Shown here in pieces: positions 3,100 through 58,022 of a DNA stretch of 64,000 bases. Position 1 is the first letter of the stretch; each line of letters starts with the position of its first letter. The stretch is from Catajapyx aquilonaris (taxonomy: Eukaryota). The DNA lies in NCBI GenBank assembly GCA_000934665.2, contig KZ538147.1, forward strand, positions 1 through 64,000. Direction: 5' to 3'. The translations under genes and the position numbers were made by a program. The notes beneath the pieces were generated by a model. That model was not told the DNA's origin. It saw only the letters and a program-made list of their open reading frames with translations, and made no database searches.

Positions 3100-6000
3100 T
3101 CATAGCCTAGAACCATCTCGCCTCCTACGATGTCGGTTGTCATCGTCATTGTCGTCATCGTCGTCATCATCATCTTCATCGTCTGTGTCAAAGGAGGTGG
3201 TAGAAACAACACTGGGAGATCCCATAGGATCATCACCCATACTGACAATCACCATTGGAACAGGTGCAGTAGCAGCAGCAGTACTTGCAACAGTTTCTTT
3301 GGCCCCGCTGGCACTTCCACCAACCAATGCCGGTCCACCTCCACCTCCTCCAACCCCACTACTTCCTCCTCCACTCCCACCACTTCCCCCTTCATCTCCT
3401 CCACCACTACCACTTCCCCCTTTCTTCCCTGCAGATGTCTCCGATTCAGGATCCAACCCATCGTAACATTCCCTCAGGGCAGGAGCAGTCCCAGAATTGC
3501 ACTCCTCAATAGTTTTGCGCAGCTGCAAATATGTAATTGTTAATTAAGCTGCATCGCATTTCTGGTTTAAAAATTGCTACAGTATTATTTTAACTAATTT
3601 GTAAAGGTGTACCTCTGTAAGTGCCACAACTCCAACTAGTCTGCCAGTGCTTGTGACATATGCCAGTCGGACTCCCAGGAGGGAGAAGAGGGAGTGTACT
3701 TTGAGCAGGGACGTCCTCTCCACAAGCTGGAATGGGGCAGGGTCTACTCGGCACTGTTCAAACTTGACCAGTTGTGCCAGTTCATGTTCCTCCCATGCCT
3801 GCTGCTCCTCAGGAGACATGTCAATCACTCTCTCTTTCGGCTGCAAAGTAAATACGAATTTTTAAAGCAGGCATTTTAAGTTGATTTAATCATTGGTGTA
3901 GACCAATGCACAATGATTGTTACTTCCAGCTATAGTGTACTAGTACTTCATTTATTATTGATCTCTTTATGCAAATTTTACTGTCTAGTTTTCCCTGCAC
4001 TTCTAGGCCATACTTATATCAATTTCAATTTTTACTTACAGTAATACGGTATAAGCTACCTCCTTCCCACCTCCTTTCTTTTAAAAAAGCTCACATGTAC
4101 TGTAATCATCATAAGTGATAGAACATACCAATTGAACCTTCTTGGCAATAGATGGACTAGGAGGTGGAAGTCCATTGGTCGCAGCACCGGGTACTCCAGC
4201 AGCATCAGGATTGACATCCTGCAATGTAGCTGCCTTTCGGAAGACAGCCTCAAATGCCTGTCTCAGGCGAGACTCAGCCCCAGTGACTGTTGTGTAGGGA
4301 GTGGACATGCCCAGTTGGGCATGGGAAGGAGACAATGACTTGAGCGAAAAGGAATTTGTCTTCTTCAGGATGGACTTGGTGGGCAGCAATGGTGAGGGTG
4401 GTGGTATATGGAGTGGCTGCTGCAGCCGGAGGACATCTGGAGCTGGCACCACTTCAAACCGGGATTCACGCCGTCCAGTTCTGGCTGCTGCGGCCCGGTT
4501 CTGCTGCTCCAACAGTGCTTCCCTCCTTCGCCTTTCCTCCTCCTGCTGCTCCAGGAATATCTGTTGCCGTCTCTTCCTCTCTTCCTCCATCTGCTCCCTA
4601 GCCCTGTCCTGTGCCTCCCTCTGCCATTTGGCTGCCACCTGAATCCTCCTCTCCCTTCCCACTTGCTTCTCTAGTACCTTGACAAGCTCCATCCGTTGGA
4701 TAGATCCCAGCAGAATCATTGAGTCAGGACTGTCCACCAATGGAAATGAGCGGAGGGCTCTGTGTGCCCTGAGTAAGTGCCTCATCTGGAGGTAGTCCAT
4801 CCCTTTCCAGATGAAAACAACATCCCTAACCATAAAATCTGCTACCCTTAGTCGGTAGGCAGCAGCATTAGAAGGCAAGATGTCAGGCAGGTAAGGCAAG
4901 CGTTTGATCAGGATGATAGAATCGTATATTGATGGTTGCAGAAGGGCAGCCACCGCATTGGCCACCAGAACCGCAATCATCACAGGGATGATGTGAGTAA
5001 TTTGGCCAGTCATTTCAAACACAATCACTGAGATGCTAATGGTATGAGTGCTGGCTCCTGCTAGGGCAGCTGCTCCCACAACTGCATAGCCACCTGTAAA
5101 ATCAGATACAAAGTTACATCATCCTTGCATTTCTCATAATCATGACATCTGCTGCCTATGTAAATTCACTGTCAGTTGTAGCAAGAGCTCTTGGTTGTAG
5201 TACTGAATAATGCATCTACGTACTGTGTTAGAGTAAGTGTAAGGTAACAGGTCACAAATGGTCTACATTTAGTTTCATGAGATATGCGACATTTTAACAA
5301 ATATTTGAACAGGCACAGGGCAGATGATGTAAGCAAATCTATTACAGCATGTCCTAAAACTACCTTGTAAGAGCTAGGAAGTATGCACATTCCTCACCAT
5401 TTCAGGATCACCAGAGAAAGAGGCAAGATAGCTGCAGACATATACCTGGATTTATAGGCTGTACACCTCCCGTGGGACCATAGCTGAATCCCTCAGGAAA
5501 CCAAAGTGCCATGGCTTCACCCACCAACCGCCCAAGAGCAGCCCCAATCTTGAAGACAGGCACTAGGGATCCAGAAGGCACAGGAAGTGTAGAGGCCACA
5601 ATGGATGTCACCATCTGCAGAGTACACAAAATTAACATGAGCTCACATCAACTGACAGATGAATGTAGCCTATACCTGAGACCCATTATACTGTATCAGT
5701 ACGTTGGCATACATACCGTGAAACAAATGTAGAGGGCCAGGTTGATCAAGACCCCACTGTAGGGTGTAGTCCAATGAGACACAGTATTTGCCTGAGTCAC
5801 AGTAAGTTGCCCCTGTGTCCAAGTGAAGTTGGCAAAGAGGCTTGTAACTTGGTCATGGGTGGACAGGTCAGCAGCAAGAAATTGACCCAATCCAGGGGGA
5901 AACAGCAGTGATGCTATGGCAAAAGACACCAGCAGTGGGTACACGAATCGGCTATAAAAAGAAATTAATTTTGCTATGAAAGTTTTCATATAATGACGGA

Positions 6001-9000
6001 AAAACTTGGGTGGGTTTTAACTTTTTCAGGGAGCATGATTGTGAAAGTTTAATTTTACTGCGCATTTATGTTTGTACAGTAATTAGCATGCCAATTTGTG
6101 TCATGGGTCTTTAGTACAGATTACCTAGCTAATTATTCAAAAATACATACTTTTTCTGTAGGAATTCATTGACTTTTTTGCTGCGTCGCATAAATATCAC
6201 ATACTGACGATGACCCCACACAAATCCTGCTCCTGCCAGTCCACTGACCATCCTGTAAAATAAGGCAGTTAATAAAACCAATCATTAATTGGTGGACCCC
6301 AACATCTGATATTTTGCCATATTAATAGCAATCAATCAAATCAGAAAAACGTCTATCACATTTTACTGAAGAAACCAGTAAGTGGTTACTCAACAAAAAG
6401 GATCGCTGGAAACCAGTAACTTTCTCGTGCAAGGAATATCATTGCCCTTTTTAAAATTAATAATATAAATGGGTATTATTTTAATGCAGTGAATGTCACT
6501 ATTGAAATGCAATAATTCCTGCGTCCATCACAATATTACGAAGTAACTAAACAGTCGTGAACTGCAGCACTGTTATTAAATACGCACCCGAGCAGGGCGA
6601 AGACTAGAAGTTCCTGAATATCAAAAGGAAATTCCCTGGTGAGATGCGTCTTGAAAACTGGAGTAAGTGTTTCTGAAATCCAAAACATGAACACCTGAAG
6701 CACACTATATAACCCTGCACAACAAAAAGCAACAATTTAATTCGGCACCATTTCTTTACCATATATCATTTAACTGCAAATTATACTGCTGTACAGTACC
6801 ATTCAATAATATTAAATAAATAAACGTATCAGTCAATGTATCCTAGAGGTATGCAACCATCATCACTCGAGCAATATCAAGGTCCTTTTTTTCCTAGACC
6901 TTCATCGTGTTCGAGAGCTAGAGGCTGCATACCGCCAGAATACGTCAGTTCGACGACCTTTTTCAATGAAATTAGTGCAATTGTCCAGTTGGACAAAAAT
7001 AAAACACAAATGCATAAATACCTTGGTCCTCGAACCAGACCGCAAGAAGTCGAAAGGCCGTGGCTCCGCAAACAGCCGCAAAAAATCCCCTCCAGTAATT
7101 CCTGACTGCAAAATAAACTGCCGTAACCTCAATGGAGAACAAGACGCCACCGATGGGCGCCGCAAAGCAGCAGGCGACGCCCACGGCGCAGGCAGCAGCC
7201 AGCATCTCCGCCGCCCTGCTCTCGTTCTCATACAGCCTCTGGAAGGAGGTGACCAGCTTGGACAGGAGGGTGGCCACCACCGAGGCCACGTGCACGAAGG
7301 GGCCTTCCTTGCCCAGGGGCATCCCAGAGCCCAGGGCAGCGGTCAGGCCGACAGCTTTGGCCACAAGGGTGCGGAATGTCAGGTACTCCTTCAGGACCAC
7401 GCCTCGGAGGATGGTCTTCATCTCGGGGATGCCTGACCCGATGGCCTGCGGGGCCACCACGTGCACGAACCCGGCAGAGAAGAGCACCAGGAAGACAGGC
7501 AGCGAGATCCATGCCAGAAGCTGCAGGGCAGGATGGGTGGCTGCCAGGTCTCGGTACAGCCAGAGCCTGGCCCTGGTACAGACGGCCACTCCGTAGTCCA
7601 TGGCAAAGGAGAGGAGGGCCATGAAGATACCCAGGAGGGCCAAGAAGACCCAGTCCTCTCCAAGCCTGGCGAATGTGTGCCTCCAGGCCACGGACAAGGC
7701 CTTGGCCACCCAGCCGACCACCACTCCGTGGCCACCAGCTTTCCCCACCACCTGGCCACGTAGCTCCTTCTCTCGGCGACGACGACGACGCTCCTCCTCA
7801 TGCCTGCGACGCTTCTCCACTCTTCGAGCTTCATCCTTGGCGTACGAACCCAGTTCCTTCGTGTACCTTCCATACATCTGCGTAAAGGAACAAAACAGCG
7901 TCAGTTGGGATCTAAAACATATAGTTCAAGATATGACATGCAGAACCGTCAGAGTCACAATGCAAATAAACCGGTTATTAACCATGGTGTAAACGTAGTC
8001 CAGGTTCTGCCTGGACGATGACGGCGTGGCCATGCCAGGACCAGGGGCGGCCCCCGTGGCCGACGCCCGACGCGGGACGGATTCCAGGTCGTTCCCGATA
8101 TCCGAGTGCAACAACGGCGCTGTAGCAGTGGAGGAGATGTCCGAGTTGGCCATCAGGTCAGAGGTCAAGGTGCCCGACAACCTTCCAGACTGGTTTCTAT
8201 TCCGCCTCCCCTGGGCTCGAAGCGCCATATGCCTCGAATCTCCAAAGAAGCCCATCTGTTGGTACAACGCCAATCGCTCCTGAGACGATGCCGACGCCAC
8301 ATGTTGCTGCTGTTGCTGCGGATGATGCTGGATGATGCTGATGCTTCCCCTGCCCGGCGGTGACCCCGAAGACAGCAACGCAGCATCGCAAGAAGACCTA
8401 CTGCAACACGACCCAAACTCCAGGTCCTCTGACTCTCGAGCAGACAACGCCATGTCGGAATCGTCCTTACTAACACAACTCACTAGTAAGACGTCACTCT
8501 CCGCATACCGAACAACAAAGTCACGCCTGATTGTCCCCGGTGTGTTTCTAAGAAAATAATCAGCTAAATGGGAAAATATCCTAGATAAAGTCCCGCCCTG
8601 TTGGCAAACCGTGCCTGTCCTCGCACAATACCAGCCTGCTGCCTCCCTGACACCCACTGGACCTATTATCTATTCTTCTTGGAGTATCTTCCAACAACCC
8701 CCTCCCCCACCTCCTTACACCCCCACCAAATCTTCCCCCGACCTGCGTTGCCACTTGCTCTATACACCACTTAAATCACACCCTACATGATCACAAACCA
8801 TGTTATGTAGCCATTACCCTACTAATAAATAACAGGATCATTACACTAATTGCATCAATTTCTCTGATCAGCCCGATACATAAAGGTACCTGATGTGCGT
8901 ACAGGTCTCGTGCATGGCAACATGCATTCTTTCCTTCACAAGAGAAAGGCCATCAGTCTCGAGACCGATGCGAGATCACGTGTTGACGTCAAAGGTCCGC

Positions 9001-32091: not shown

Positions 32092-32761
32092 GACGAGGCT
32101 GTGTTTGTTGCTCTTCCTCTTCTTCTTCTACTACTCTCCCGTCAGCGGAGTGCTTCCTGGATCAAGTCGTCGTGGTTGGTTCCACCTCCAACCCAGCGCC
32201 GAGACCCCCGTCCGTCCCCGTCTGTCACACACACTGCAGTATCCCAACCGGCCGGGTTCGTCCTTCAGTTCCTGCCCTTCGCTTCCTTTCCCCCCCGGCC
32301 TATCTGGACGTCACGGCGGGGCAGGCGAGGCTGTGCGTATCTCCCTGCCTCGGGCTAAAAGCGAGGCTGGTGGCGGTAGGAACACTGCTGGCTCGGGACA
32401 GTCCCCCAGCTCGACCTGCTGCAATGGCGACCTCGGCCCTTTTCCCCTCTGATGTCATCCATCCGGGAACTTTTCGGGTGGTGGGAGGGGGAGGCGGGCG
32501 GGCGGGTTGGCGGGTGGGTGGGTTGGAGGTGGCGGGGGCGGAGTGGGCGGCACGCACACGCATCCACATTAAACGCACTTTTAATTAACCAAAATGTTAA
32601 TTAATTACACGCAACTAATTAGAGCCGCATGTTAGCTGAATAGAGGGCAGCACGTGCTTCCGGTCTGTCCTTGTCGTCACTTCCGGTCTGGTGCAGGCCT
32701 ATCCTCGTGTCATTTGCGGTTCGTGTCGGGTCCGAGTTCGTCGTGTTGTTCGAGTACAGAG
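32092..32761. promoter_or_regulatory. Divergent Syb / RpL22 promoter region
   Basis: Head-to-head start codons about 670 bp apart in a CpG-rich island; two CTTCCGG (ETS-like) motifs at about 32657 and 32680 upstream of the RpL22 ATG. Confidence 0.55.
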
Positions 32762-33202
32762 ATGCCACCGGTAAGTACGGCTCATTACAAGGGCATACAC
32801 TAATTGCGATGGGCTGTTTTAAGTATTTGGGATATCGGATGGACTTGAGCAGGGTCAGATTTGATCGGATTGGAGGGTTGACCATATTTTTTTCGGGGTG
32901 TAGGCAAAGGAGAAGAAGCCGGCCCCTGCTGCGGGAGGTGCGGCCAAACCAGCCCCTGCTGCAGGAGGTGCAGCCAAGCCGGCCCCTGCTGCGGGAGGTG
33001 CAGCCAAGCCGGCCCCTGCTGCAGGAGGTGCAGCCAAGCCAGCCCCCGCTGCGGGAGGTGCCAAGCCGGCCCCACAGCAACAGCAGCAGAAGAAGGCTCC
33101 GGCCCAACCTGCACAGCAACAACCAAAGAAGGCTGCTTCGCAACCGGCGCAACAACAACAACAGCAGTCGCAGCAGCCCAAGAAGGCGCAGTCTCAGCCA
33201 GG

Positions 33203-33237
<35 letters not shown>

Positions 33238-35259
33238 AGAAGGCAGCGGCTCAGCCTGCACAACAACAGCAGCAACAGCCCAAGAAGGCTGCATCACAGC
33301 CTGCCCAACAGCAGCAGAAAAAGGAGAAGGCCCCCGCACAGCCTGGCCAGCAGCAACAACAACAGCAGCAGAAGAAGGAGAAGGCCCCCGCACAGCCTGG
33401 CCAGCAGCAACAGCAGCAGAAGAAAGAGAAGGCCCCCGCACAGCCTGGCCAGCAGCAACAGCAGCAGAAGAAAGAGAAGGCCCCTGCACAGCCTGGCCAG
33501 CAGCAGCAACAACAGCAGAAGAAAGAGAAGGGCCCCGCACAGCCTGGCCAGCAGCAGCAACAACAGCAGAAGAAGGAAAAGGGTCCCGCACAGCCTGGCC
33601 AGCAGCAACAACAGCAGAAGAAAGAGAAGGCCCCTGCACAGCAGCAGCAGCAGCCGAAGAAGGAAAAGGGTCAACAGCCAGCCCAGCAGCAGCAACAGCA
33701 GCAGAAGAAGGCCCCTGCCCAACAGCCTGCCCAGAAGAAGGATGAGCCCAAGAAGGCTGCCTCGGCCACCACTCCCAAGCAGCAGCAACAGCAGCAGCAG
33801 CCAGCCAAGGCAAAGGGAGGAGCCAAGCCTCAGGAGGCTGCCAAGCAGCAGCAACAACAGCAGGGCAAGGCCAAGCCTGCCCAGCAAACCCAGCAGCCAG
33901 CAAAGAAGGAGCAGGCCCCCCCAGCTCAGCAGGCGCAGAAACGGAAGGCAGAAGCACCCAAGAAGGATGCTTCCCAGCCTGCCCCGAAGAAGAAGGCCGA
34001 GGGTGCTCCTGCTGCACAGCAGCAGCAGAAGAAGGGTGATGCCAAGAAGGCCGAGCCAGCCCAGAAGAAGAAGGAAGGTGTCAAACCAGCTCAGCAGCAG
34101 CCAGCCAAAAAGGCTGCATCTGCCCCAGCCACTGCCGCTCCCCAGCAGAAGGCAAAGGCCGTCAAGCGTGAGGCTGGGAAGGACTCTTCTGCACCTCCAG
34201 CCAAGGAAGCCAAGACTGCTCCCAAGGCAGCAGCTAAGCCTGCAGCCAAGCCAGCTGCCAAGCCAGCTGCCAAGCCTGCCGCCAAGCAAGCCGCCAAGCC
34301 TGCCGCTGCCAAGCCCACTGCTGCCAAGCCTGCTGCTGCTAAACCTGCAGCCAAAACGGCAGCCAAGGATCCTAAGGCCGCAGGGAAACCTGCTGTCCCC
34401 AAGGTCGCCGTCCCAGTGAAGAAGACAGCCGCTGCCAAGGCTGCTGCCAAGCTGTCCAAGGCGTCCAAGCCCACCCAGAAGAAGGCGACAGCTGCTGCCA
34501 ATGCTGCGGCCGCTGCTGCTGCTGCTGCGCAAAGGGCAAGGCAGCTGAGCAGGCAGAAACTGAAGGGGAAGGGTCAGCGTGGACGGAAGGTGACAGTCAA
34601 GTATGGGATCGACTGCGCGCATCCGGTTGAAGATGGCATTATGAATTCAGCTGATTTTGTGAGTGCAGCCAGCAGTGACCCCTGGGACCAGATGCCATCT
34701 TGGACATTTTCGGTCCTAGGGCTCTCTTCCCTAGCGACCCAGGGACCTCTTCCCTGCTTGCCTGCCTGGCACCTTGGTGCTGGGCGGCATGGCAGTGGCT
34801 AGGGCTACCTTCCCTAGCCCCCATACTGCCACCAAATCATGGTCACGTGGCATGTTGACTCATTTGTTCCTTTGTCATTTCAGGAGAAGTACCTTCGTGA
34901 GCGTATCAAGGTCAATGGGAAGCTGAGCAACTTCGGAAGTGTTGTCTCACTTGAGAGGAATAAGAACAAGATCAGCCTCACCGCTGACATCCACTTCTCA
35001 AAAAGGTGATTTTTAAATGTTGAATAGCAGAGTCGTCATCATTTGTGGCCATATAATTTTTCAATTTGTGTTAGATTCTCATGACCTCAACTAATGGTGA
35101 AACTTGTTCTTTCCCAGGTACCTCAAGTACCTGACAAAGAAGTACCTGAAGAAGAACAACCTTCGGGACTGGCTCCGAGTGGTTGCCCCTAACAAGGAGA
35201 ACTACGAGCTTAGGTACTTCCAGATCAACCAGGAAGAAGAGGATGACGATAAGGACTAA
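32762..35259 (+). CDS. RpL22: 60S ribosomal protein L22 (eL22) with very long Ala/Lys/Pro/Gln-rich N-terminal extension (~675 aa total)
   Basis: Exons 32762-32770 (MPP), 32904-34658, 34884-35005, 35118-35259. Core motifs [60 protein letters not shown] and an acidic tail. Confidence 0.95.
32916..34380 (+). repeat. Coding tandem repeats in the RpL22 extension
   Basis: About five 30-nt units encoding [10 protein letters not shown], about seven 45-51-nt units encoding [22 protein letters not shown] runs and AAKP repeats. Confidence 0.9.
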
Positions 35260-37953: not shown

Positions 37954-40388
37954 TCAAACATATCGGAACTGCTTGAGACAGTCATTCCCAAGGTCCGCCA
38001 CCAACAGGTGGCCCCCATCTGGCAATGGCGCAACGCCTGATGGACGCTTCAGCTTGGCGCCAAATGAATCGATGGTGCAGAGCAGGTGGCCATCGTTTAT
38101 GCGGAACACTTGCACAAAACTGCGACCCTTCTCACTCCGTGATGCAAGGACACGTCCACAGCTGTCCACGCAGATTCCACCATAGCGACCTTTACCTGAT
38201 TGGCATTAAAAATAAATTAATCGCAATTCCCCAGTAAGGTCTATTTGGCCTAAGTGCTTATTTCGCATAGGACTTGCGCATGCAAACATTCTCTGCTTCG
38301 TGAAACATTAATTACAGTATTTGTAACGGCTTTATGGGTACTGTCATTTTTGCTACATTTACTTGAGCATTTTCTCAATTCTCCAGAGTAATTAGCATTA
38401 TTTCATAACCAATTTGGTACCACAATAATTACAGTTTTACTACCACACTTTTCAAGTATGATTTGAACAATCTCAGGTTATCATCATTATGCAGTTATGA
38501 AATGCATACCTTTCCCTTCTGCATTGATCTCACGCAGAAACTTTCCAGCAGATGAGAAGACCACAATAGTTGAGTCGGCCACCAGGATCTCACCAGTTGA
38601 TGAAACAGCCACGGCTGCCACCCCAACCTTCCTGTTTGCAACTTTTCTCACCATCTGACCTGTGGCAACGTCCATCACAAAGACTGCACCAGCCGCATGG
38701 TCACCAACGGCAATGCATCCTTCACCCGCAGCAGCCAGGGACACTGGCTCCAGAAATTCAGAGCATGTGAAGCTTGAACGGGTCTCGCCTGTGCCTGGAT
38801 TCAACACGGAAACAGTCTTTGTCCTCCAGTTGACGACAGCCAGCTCTTCAGTTGGTAGCCACGCAAGTCCAGTGCCAGATCTGCCTTCCAAGGCACTGCT
38901 GTCTAACTGCCGCAGTGGCTCCAGATGAACATCGAGTACTTGTATGCGTGAGTTACCAGTATCCAGCACATATATCTCAGTACGTGATGTTGCAATGGCT
39001 ACAGGTTGAACCAATTCCCGCTTTCCAGATCCCCTTGAGCCATATATAGCCACTGGTGGATGTTGAACAGATGCTTCAATCACCAATGGTGATCCTCGAA
39101 CTGGTCTACCAAAGAGGGTCACTTGAAGTTGCGACACGCCCGGTGGAGGTCGGAATCGCAATATGTATGTTCCATCATCTTCGTCCTCAATTGCAACTGG
39201 CATGGTGGGACCTTCGTCAGGAACCAGGCTAGCCATCAGAGGATCACCGCCGTTGGTACGCCTTCTCCCATTTAAATCCACAGCAGTGAAAATGGCACTT
39301 GTCTCCAGTCCAGCCACTAATGTGGAATCAGGTGTCTCGTGGGGGATTTCCAGCGAACATAATCCAGGAAGAGTGCTGGATGACCGTACACGCCCAAGGG
39401 ATGCAGCAGCCTCTGCCAGCTGCCCCCGTGCTGGCCCATGGTCAGATTCAAACAGCAAAAAAGCATTTTCACGTGGCTCACCAAGTGTTGACACTGAATC
39501 CAATTTGGCCCCCAATTCAGCTATTCGTCTTGATATGTGTCGAACTTCAACTTGCCAGTGCAGACCTTCAACCTCTGCCTGAACCTTGCTACGTTCAGCT
39601 GAAATCAACTCAAGTTGTTCTGCCAGGACTTTCTGCTTTGCTTGTGCCACACTACGTACTTCCTCAAGAACAGCTTCGCGGCGTTTCTCAAGCACCTCAA
39701 CCGCCTCTTGGAAACAGCGATTGACATCTGCCAATCCAGATTCGACAGATAATTCTAACGCTGCCAATTCAGCCTCAACCCTTCCAGATGCTTCATCCAA
39801 TTTTCCAACACACTCATTAGCCTTGTACAGTAGGATTTCTGACATGCGCTTAATTGCAATTGAAAATGGTATCACAGTATGTTCTGAAGCTGGCAGCTGT
39901 GAAGACGAGGATGAGGATGATGATGTGTCTGGATCCTTCACATTGGTCGACGACCCAGACGCACCACCTGTCTGATGGGAGCCTCCAACGCACAGGCTGC
40001 AGAACACGGTGTCGCACGTCTCGCAAAACAACAGCTCCTGAGCAATATGCGTTGCACACTTGGGGATCACGTGACGGCGTTGACGAGACATGAGATCCAG
40101 AAGTTGGTTGACCAAGAAAGATGGCGGCAAGGCGGAGACTCCACCACGGGGTATCCCAATAAGCTCACGGCATATCGGACACCTGAAGGTGCCATCGTCC
40201 CTGGTCTGGGAAGATGCGATGCGTCCCAGGCACTGCAGGCACACGGTGTGGGAACAGGGCAGCAGCTTCGGGGTGTGCTCGCCCCCATCATACATGCACA
40301 GGCACGTCCCACACGTCAGGAAGCTCTCATTGAAGTCCTCATAGTTGATGGAAACAGTTTCCACCAATGTAGACGTCATGTTGATCAT
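37954..40388 (-). CDS. TRIM2/3-like RING - B-box - coiled coil - filamin - NHL protein
   Basis: RING (CGTC...PCSHTVC..C...CPIC), B-box (CATH..ELLFCETCDTVFCSLC), filamin repeat (DGTY...GSP) and NHL repeats (VLDTGNSRIQ, VADLGNDC). Exons 40388-38510 and 38195-37954; the true start or upstream exons are uncertain. Confidence 0.9.

Positions 40389-46261: not shown

Positions 46262-58022
<11,761 letters not shown>

Follow-up and report, generated by a model that had tools for sequence, protein, structure and literature searches.

The 64-kb stretch of Catajapyx aquilonaris DNA analysed here (positions 1 to 64,000 of contig KZ538147.1, hereafter the window) carries on its forward strand a gene for the ribosomal protein eL22 (RpL22), which, on reading the sequence and its open reading frames (ORFs), comprises four coding exons. 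The subject of this report is the intron that precedes the third of these exons, a 225-nucleotide (nt) segment harboring three short hairpins that resemble known eL22 ligands and are thus candidates for a feedback device acting on the pre-mRNA of the gene itself. The parts of the gene and of this intron are as follows, where z compares the minimum-free-energy (MFE) fold of a segment with folds of its shuffles.

32762..32770, forward strand: coding part of exon 1, ATG CCA CCG and then GTAAGT; the splice to 32904 is predicted, with no read cover.
32904..34658, forward strand: exon 2, an ORF whose 3' end is confirmed by a spliced contig joining 34658 to 34884.
34659..34883, forward strand: candidate regulated intron, 225 nt, GT..AG, phase 0, GC content 0.578, z -4.67.
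34680..34689, forward strand: CCCUGGGACC, competitor for the 5' arm of hairpin 1, pairing with 34712-34721 (GGUCCUAGGG) at a predicted probability of 0.62-1.0 and in the MFE fold.
34716..34734, forward strand: hairpin 1, CTAGGG-ctctctt-CCCTAG (as RNA, CUAGGG-CUCUCUU-CCCUAG).
34740..34756, forward strand: hairpin 2, CAGGG-acctctt-CCCTG (as RNA, CAGGG-ACCUCUU-CCCUG).
34759..34789, forward strand: a further hairpin, the fourth, rich in GC and with C-G closing its CUUG loop, outside the L22 consensus, in the MFE fold.
34790..34831, forward strand: hairpin 3 including its outer 7-bp stem, TGGCAGT (34790-34796) with ACTGCCA (34825-34831).
34797..34819, forward strand: hairpin 3, GGCTAGGG-ctacctt-CCCTAGCC (as RNA, GGCUAGGG-CUACCUU-CCCUAGCC).
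34855..34859, forward strand: likely branch site UUGAC, 25 nt 5' of the acceptor, judged by its sequence only.
34884..35005, forward strand: exon 3, delimited by spliced contigs.
35006..35117, forward strand: intron 3, 112 nt, GC content 0.34, unstructured (z +0.62), seen only in spliced form.
35118..35259, forward strand: coding part of exon 4, with a KKYLKK stretch and the stop codon TAA.

The protein encoded by this gene begins, in exon 2, with an extension of about 560 codons rich in Ala, Lys, Pro and Gln, after which the eL22 domain starts. The extension (32904-34560) is of low complexity and built of repeats, and it is long when set against entire eL22 proteins, which measure 82-216 residues among the matches listed. 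At the other end, the protein keeps the KKYLKK motif, an RNA-binding motif that the human protein requires in order to bind RNA (PMC3750023).

The intron at 34659-34883 starts with GTGAGT, finishes with TTTCAG and is, as an earlier note on this DNA had remarked, richer in GC than its neighbors (0.578, with intron 1 at 0.439 and intron 3 at 0.339). Direct reading likewise bears out the three hairpins described in that note, including the outer TGGCAGT/ACTGCCA stem on which the third one sits: each has a G-C top pair and a 7-nt loop ending in CUU (CUCUCUU, ACCUCUU and CUACCUU), and the third, taken together with its outer stem, forms 15 pairs in 42 nt with a local energy of -24.1 kcal/mol. The array lies 36-140 nt upstream of the likely branch site. 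Two further features concern splicing and translation. On the one hand, the frame of exon 2, when read through the intron, runs to a TAG at 34800-34802 inside hairpin 3 (ORF 32904..34802), just as had been claimed. On the other hand, the 3' arm of hairpin 1 is a pyrimidine run followed by UAG (34732-34734) and that of hairpin 3 finishes in UAG at 34815-34817, so that both look like splice acceptors; splicing to the former would extend the message by 149 nt, shift the frame and lead to a stop at 34924-34926, and splicing to the latter would insert 22 codons in frame.

The published consensus for L22 ligands demands a top pair whose 5' base is G and whose 3' base is C and a U as the loop's 3'-terminal nucleotide (bioRxiv 10.1101/2023.12.29.573614, PMC2668802), the loop having 5-7 nt (PMC2668802); in another notation the motif reads NNNNG(N)7CUNNN (PMC5755908). 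All three hairpins of the intron agree with the former two descriptions (top pair with 3' U, and loop length), thereby sharing the top pair, the loop length and the 3' U of the L22 ligands represented by EBER1 and by systematic evolution of ligands by exponential enrichment (SELEX). A scan of the window for the same consensus with at least 5 Watson-Crick pairs returned 11 hairpins on the forward strand and 12 on the reverse strand; of the 11, three fall in the 225-nt intron, and one more is located in the third exon of the eL22 gene. The latter (34937-34952, AAGUG-UUGUCU-CACUU) fits the loose consensus within coding sequence and lacks a counterpart in the echinoid-like gene described below. 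The more specific pattern AGGGNNNNCTTCCCT occurs four times in the window, counting both strands, and three of these occurrences are in the intron, against a mean of 0.02 in 100 shuffles.

Folding, proposed in the earlier note as a check, supported the array in part. The intron reaches an MFE of -100.5 kcal/mol versus -77.5 +/- 4.9 for its shuffles, none of which (0/200) was as stable, and the neighboring introns are devoid of excess structure (z +0.62 for intron 3 and -0.59 for intron 1). Pair probabilities from partition-function folds in three sequence contexts came to 0.93-0.98 for hairpin 3 and 0.6-1.0 for hairpin 2, both of which are accordingly predicted to form, and to 0-0.37 for hairpin 1. 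The low value for the latter arises because its 5' arm also pairs with CCCUGGGACC, and this competition is a possible two-state arrangement in the models.

The array recurs in a homologous intron. An alignment of 12 animal eL22 proteins served to search public metagenome collections, and 80 of the 227 confirmed loci, amounting to 252,808 nt and mostly intron-less or cDNA (complementary DNA), were analyzed. Besides the window, an intron at the same F|E codon boundary was found in three of them, here designated L080, L063 and L062. L080 is a 1196-nt contig that ends in AATAAA and poly(A) and whose exon 3-4 product is identical at 81 of 88 positions to eL22 of the sea urchin Diadema. Its exons 3 and 4 directly adjoin each other, and upstream of exon 3 it carries 633 non-coding nt that end at the same codon boundary; it therefore represents a polyadenylated transcript that retains the homologous intron, the retained length being at least 633 nt. 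This intron holds three hairpins, UCAGGG-CAACAUU-CCCUGA, UAGGG-ACAACUU-CCCUA and UAAGUUAGGG-UCACCUU-CCCUAACUUG, located 78-165 nt before the acceptor and all present in the MFE fold (z -3.08), the 3' arm of the second being again a pyrimidine run followed by UAG. The layout is common to the two genes, namely two hairpins 5-7 nt apart followed by the longest one, 64-78 nt before the acceptor, and so is the form AGGG-N4-[C/A]UU-CCCU, whose AGGG/CCCU top and [C/A]UU loop end go beyond the EBER1/SELEX motif.

Several comparisons bear on this likeness. The string GGG-N5-TT-CCC appears three times in L080, and the remaining 79 loci contain it five times, both strands counted. When the three hairpins of the window alone were used to construct a covariance model and both strands of all 80 loci were searched with it, the L080 hairpins ranked first (27.2 bits, E 0.004), second (18.6 bits, E 0.38) and fifth (E 3.3). 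In an alignment of seven hairpins, 83.9% of the cells were paired versus 69.3 +/- 3.7% in shuffles, with 0/500 reaching that value; all six hairpins of the window and L080 have A-U, G-C, G-C and G-C as their top four pairs, and at the fifth position counted from the loop four of the seven have U-A, two have C-G and one has G-U, although the aligned hairpins are partly paralogous and the pair counts are hence not independent events. As judged from these alignments, the hairpins are conserved, with compensatory change, in the homologous intron of a distant animal; conservation in an orthologous intron was what the earlier note had asked for, with insects in mind, and the comparison that supplies it is echinoid-like.

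The other two introns at the boundary do not extend the set. The invertebrate gene L063, with introns of 58 nt, has a single hairpin in its F|E intron (L063:906-963), AGACGG-UCUGCUU-CCGUUU, which lies between a likely, CUAAU-like branch site and the acceptor, over the pyrimidine tract; it fits the loose consensus only, and we rejected it as a member of the extended motif given that a six-hairpin model misses it at E up to 10. The 136-nt AT-rich intron of L062 at this boundary contains no consensus hairpin.

Contigs from a run of the same organism (X5) speak to the fate of the intron in RNA. A 59-nt contig joins 34658 to 34884 across the GT..AG intron with a k-mer depth of 200.2, a 284-nt contig (34630-34913) spans the whole intron with 0 differences and a depth of 54.2, and a 239-nt contig joins 35005 to 35118, thus lacking intron 3, with a depth of 547.2; intron 3 has no cover of its own among the contigs of this run. 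Since spliced joints are present, the run, whose type is not on record, contains cDNA, and since carry-over of DNA would cover both introns and only one of them is covered, transcripts must exist that keep 34659-34883 and lose intron 3. By contig depth, which is a poor gauge of level, the retained branch makes up about one fifth of the retained and spliced branches together. Unspliced eL22 RNA is thus found next to the spliced form among these contigs, as in the yeast RPL22 feedback. The earlier note had envisaged intron retention or alternative splicing, and it is the former that the contigs display, no joint to an alternative 3' splice site having been seen among them. Three additional runs (X12, X13 and X19) come from distant organisms, match the conserved exon 4 only and are uninformative on the intron.

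The closest known parallel is found in human cells. RPL22 controls its paralogue RPL22L1 through intron 2 of the latter (bioRxiv 10.1101/2024.08.15.608201; bioRxiv 10.1101/2023.12.29.573614; PMC12035866), where two stem loops overlap an alternative acceptor and coincide with an RPL22 peak in crosslinking and immunoprecipitation (CLIP), and where the alternative product is frameshifted, comprises 64 amino acids without the RNA-binding part and is stabilized when nonsense-mediated decay is blocked (bioRxiv 10.1101/2024.08.15.608201); an independent study reports juxtaposed L22 consensus sites in the same intron (bioRxiv 10.1101/2023.12.29.573614). A primer for that intron, GGGTTCTCTTCCCTAGTTTTGC (bioRxiv 10.1101/2024.08.15.608201), begins with GGG-TTCTCTT-CCCTAG, and its start, GGGTTCTCTTCCCTAG, agrees in 15 of 16 bases with the core of hairpin 1, GGGCTCTCTTCCCTAG (34719-34734, GGG-CTCTCTT-CCCTAG), the human side of the comparison being the primer only.

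The likenesses go beyond this core. Both introns carry juxtaposed consensus hairpins in a gene of the eL22 family and precede exon 3 (the human position being the one we presume), and in both cases a GGG-N4CUU-CCCUAG core, an acceptor-like 3' arm and an unproductive transcript without the RNA-binding part are encountered; splicing to the UAG of hairpin 1, were it to occur, would moreover shift the frame in the way the human variant does. Three differences should be stressed: RPL22 represses a paralogue in the human system, whereas the hairpins of the window reside in the only eL22 gene seen and the loop would be autogenous; there are three consensus hairpins in the window and two in RPL22L1; and the unproductive form is a full retention here but the use of an alternative acceptor there. 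Furthermore, function has been demonstrated experimentally for RPL22L1, whereas the element of the window is known from sequence and contigs. Because the core of hairpin 1 matches the human primer so closely, the array is best read as an invertebrate counterpart of the RPL22-responsive stem loops of vertebrate RPL22L1 intron 2, placed on the pre-mRNA of the gene's own product.

A separate observation concerns the human primers themselves: the intron-2 primer (GGGTTCTCTTCCCTAG..) and the primer for variant 3 (GGGAAGAGAACCCTAG..) are mutually reverse-complementary over 16 nt, and the human intron may accordingly hold two mutually complementary hairpins. The eL22 gene of the window contains no such antisense copy of a hairpin.

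Other systems resemble the element in one respect or another. Three L22 consensus sites are described in intron 6 of MDM4, and mutating their G, C and U bases abolishes control by L22 (bioRxiv 10.1101/2023.12.29.573614); compared by description, MDM4 likewise has three closely spaced consensus stem-loops in one intron, but it is a different gene, the outcome is exon skipping and the sites are at the 5' end of the intron. In yeasts, eL22 acts as a splicing inhibitor on an intron within its own gene family (RPL22A and RPL22B in yeast, RPL22 in K. lactis), and RPL22 of Kluyveromyces lactis being single-copy, the feedback there is autogenous (PMC4838235, PMC5755908, PMC13630204). The yeast element is a long imperfect stem-loop of the first intron, between the 5' splice site and the branch point, reportedly unlike the SELEX motif, whereas the element of the window consists of short hairpins that match this motif in the intron before exon 3.

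L10a is reportedly another ribosomal protein that steers its own pre-mRNA into unproductive splicing through a conserved intron sequence, the protein and the element being different ones. We set aside the retained intron of Drosophila rpL22-like (PMC3074143), which is a different, non-canonical and unrelated intron, as well as the idea that the hairpins mimic the binding site on 28S rRNA, because this ribosomal site is depicted in the human CLIP study as a long stem that has no small loops of this kind.

Taken together, we consider it probable that the three hairpins are binding sites for eL22, the product of the gene itself, and that they mediate feedback via intron retention, in line with what the earlier note had proposed; each part of that proposal which the sequence and contig data could address was borne out. 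Under this scheme, eL22 in excess over ribosome assembly would, as free nuclear protein, bind the hairpin array on the nascent pre-mRNA, and the occupied array would stop the productive removal of the intron at 34659-34883. The retained transcript would end its frame at the UAG of 34800-34802, which precedes the next exon junction by about 200 nt, and would thus specify the N-terminal extension together with a piece of the eL22 fold devoid of KKYLKK; it would be expected to be detained or degraded, and eL22 output would drop until the free protein had been consumed. The competing pairing of hairpin 1 could, as a speculation, turn the array into a switch, much as alternative pairings have been proposed to do in yeast RPL22 introns (PMC13630204). 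We infer each of the essential steps, i.e. the binding of eL22, the splicing block, the dependence of retention on the eL22 level and the fate of the retained transcript.

That eL22 acts back on introns within its gene family is already known for yeasts and, between paralogues, for vertebrates; a literature search, with most subscription journals outside its reach, found neither such hairpins in an invertebrate eL22 gene nor their conservation across animal phyla. The relevance of the present case is stressed by the recent recognition of RPL22 as a human sensor that links ribosome production to the splicing of RPL22L1, MDM4 and UBAP2L through an RNA target that has been described as loosely defined. 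The occurrence of the same hairpins in the same intron of an arthropod-like and an echinoid-like gene would mean that the RPL22L1 element did not originate with the vertebrates; if it is a true counterpart, the feedback would be older than the vertebrate duplication into RPL22 and RPL22L1 and would originally have been autoregulatory. The comparison would also narrow the recognized RNA to a stem topped by AGGG/CCCU whose 7-nt loop ends in CUU, a motif that can be used to search for further eL22 targets.

Related hairpins turn up in eL22 genes beyond this intron. When the 80 loci were scanned for the form taken from the window (a hairpin topped by a G-C pair, whose 7-nt loop ends in CUU, with at least 5 Watson-Crick pairs), the sense strand near the genes (positions -400 to +150 relative to the coding match; 66,474 nt) yielded 9 matches in 8 loci belonging to 5 sequence groups, against an average of 0.35 and never more than 3 in 300 dinucleotide shuffles, and no match was found on the antisense strand near the genes or on either strand of 186,334 nt of flanks; region and motif were fixed after some matches were known, and these figures hence overstate significance. 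Three control matches in a broader scan all end in AUU. Three distinct fungus-like genes (L023/L052, L042 and L044) have an exon 1 consisting of ATG alone and a first intron of about 70 nt in which CGCUUUG-CUGAG-N7-CUCAG-UAGGCU(G)AAC is conserved, the hairpin adjoining the branch site on its 5' side. Hairpins outside the intron before exon 3, to none of which Rfam assigns a family, are the following.

L023:31-47, L052:2958-2974, L042:810-826 and L044:1868-1884: hairpins of the fungus-like first intron, with loops UUCUCUU, UCCCAUU and UACCCUU (that of L042 ends in AUU).
L035:1556-1574: hairpin in the 5' untranslated region (UTR), UUGAAG-UUAUCUU-CUUCAA, 10 nt before the AUG.
L059:1284-1300, L061:504-520 and L076:481-497: hairpin spanning the stop codon, CAGAG-UGAACUU-CUCUG.

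These instances suggest, tentatively and with rather less assurance than for the window itself, that a G-(N4)CUU-C hairpin having seven loop nucleotides serves eL22 feedback throughout the opisthokonts, perhaps beyond them, and that its form has been kept while it moved within the gene. On this reading, which may well prove too broad, the element would occupy the intron before exon 3 in animals, the first intron in the filamentous-fungus-like genes and, in other eukaryotes, the 5' UTR (L035) and the stop codon (L059, L061 and L076). Were it true, an RNA recognized by eL22 in its own transcripts would be as old as most major lineages or reinvented in them, and the binding consensus would be sharper than the SELEX motif of 1995. 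A general enrichment of the loose consensus in the eL22 regions was considered and rejected (29 sense versus 23 antisense occurrences).

A number of points weigh against autoregulation through the hairpins and should be taken together. Hairpin 1 is predicted to spend most of its time in other pairing, and hairpin 2 is able to add an A-U pair, which leaves a 5-nt loop outside the consensus. The near-equality of sense and antisense counts for the loose published consensus in the 80 eL22 regions offers no help, and the extended motif is present in two of the four animal eL22 genes with an intron at the boundary (the window and L080, not L063 or L062). Retention is known from contigs of a single run of unrecorded type, in which depth poorly reflects level, and a strongly folded intron could simply splice slowly; moreover, no contig of that run joins 34658 to the UAG of 34734 or 34817, contigs being prone to drop rare variants. 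For intron 2 of human RPL22L1, a position at this same codon boundary is presumed, in agreement with the size of the 64-amino-acid product. Finally, the L22 motif has been called "loosely defined", and no CLIP signal was seen at 28S sites picked by SELEX (bioRxiv 10.1101/2024.08.15.608201).

Alternatively, the hairpins could be conserved splicing elements acting without eL22, either as structures that hide or present the acceptor-like CUUCCCUAG runs or as sites for pyrimidine-tract proteins, with partial retention being constitutive. Hairpins 1 and 3 and the second L080 hairpin each have a 3' arm that reads as a pyrimidine run plus UAG, which suits this explanation, as do the competing pairing of hairpin 1 and the fact that retention is seen without any perturbation. 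We nonetheless regard it as unlikely, since it leaves the recurrence of the form on the sense strand of eL22 genes unexplained (9 matches in 8 of 80 loci against a shuffle mean of 0.35, antisense 0), and the matching human region displays both an RPL22 CLIP peak and RPL22-responsive splicing.

It is far less probable that the array is a lineage-specific local duplication or a fragment of a repeat, without function and fitting the consensus by chance. The loose consensus is indeed common, and blastn of the intron against the window detected, apart from the self match, the likeness of hairpins 1 and 3, which are 90% alike across 20 nt; but no further copy exists in the 64 kb, so that the match to a transposable element which the earlier note had named as a counter-indication did not appear, the same triplet stands on different lower stems in the homologous echinoid-like intron, and the core recurs in human RPL22L1 intron 2, as far as the primer reveals it. 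Least credible of all is that the intron hosts a small RNA (small nucleolar RNA (snoRNA), mirtron or other) comprising the hairpins: ribosomal protein introns often host snoRNAs and this one is strongly folded, but a search of Rfam 15 gave no match in the intron at E up to 10, this being the snoRNA check suggested earlier, and, with E up to 1, 8 related loci likewise matched no family; neither C/D nor H/ACA boxes were noticed, and the longest helix (15 pairs in 42 nt) is short for a microRNA precursor.

With regard to the surroundings of the gene, the segment at 32200-32560, upstream of exon 1, is GC-rich (0.60-0.66) and bears G-runs (GGGAGGGGGAGGCGGGCGGGCGGG..) just 5' of an AT-rich block of the TTAATTAA type; it is likely the promoter region of the eL22 gene. 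Three neighbors, all on the reverse strand, could be named from their translations. A single-exon TRIM-NHL gene (TRIM2/3-like, named also by protein comparison) lies at 38490-40340, and its protein is most like those of insects (53%), followed by copepods (49%) and molluscs (47-48%), which marks the organism as arthropod-like and leaves it without a near relation among the database entries. The segment at 4081-8669 contains exons of a CLC-type chloride channel-like gene, and a gene for a multi-PDZ protein is situated at 50673-52079.

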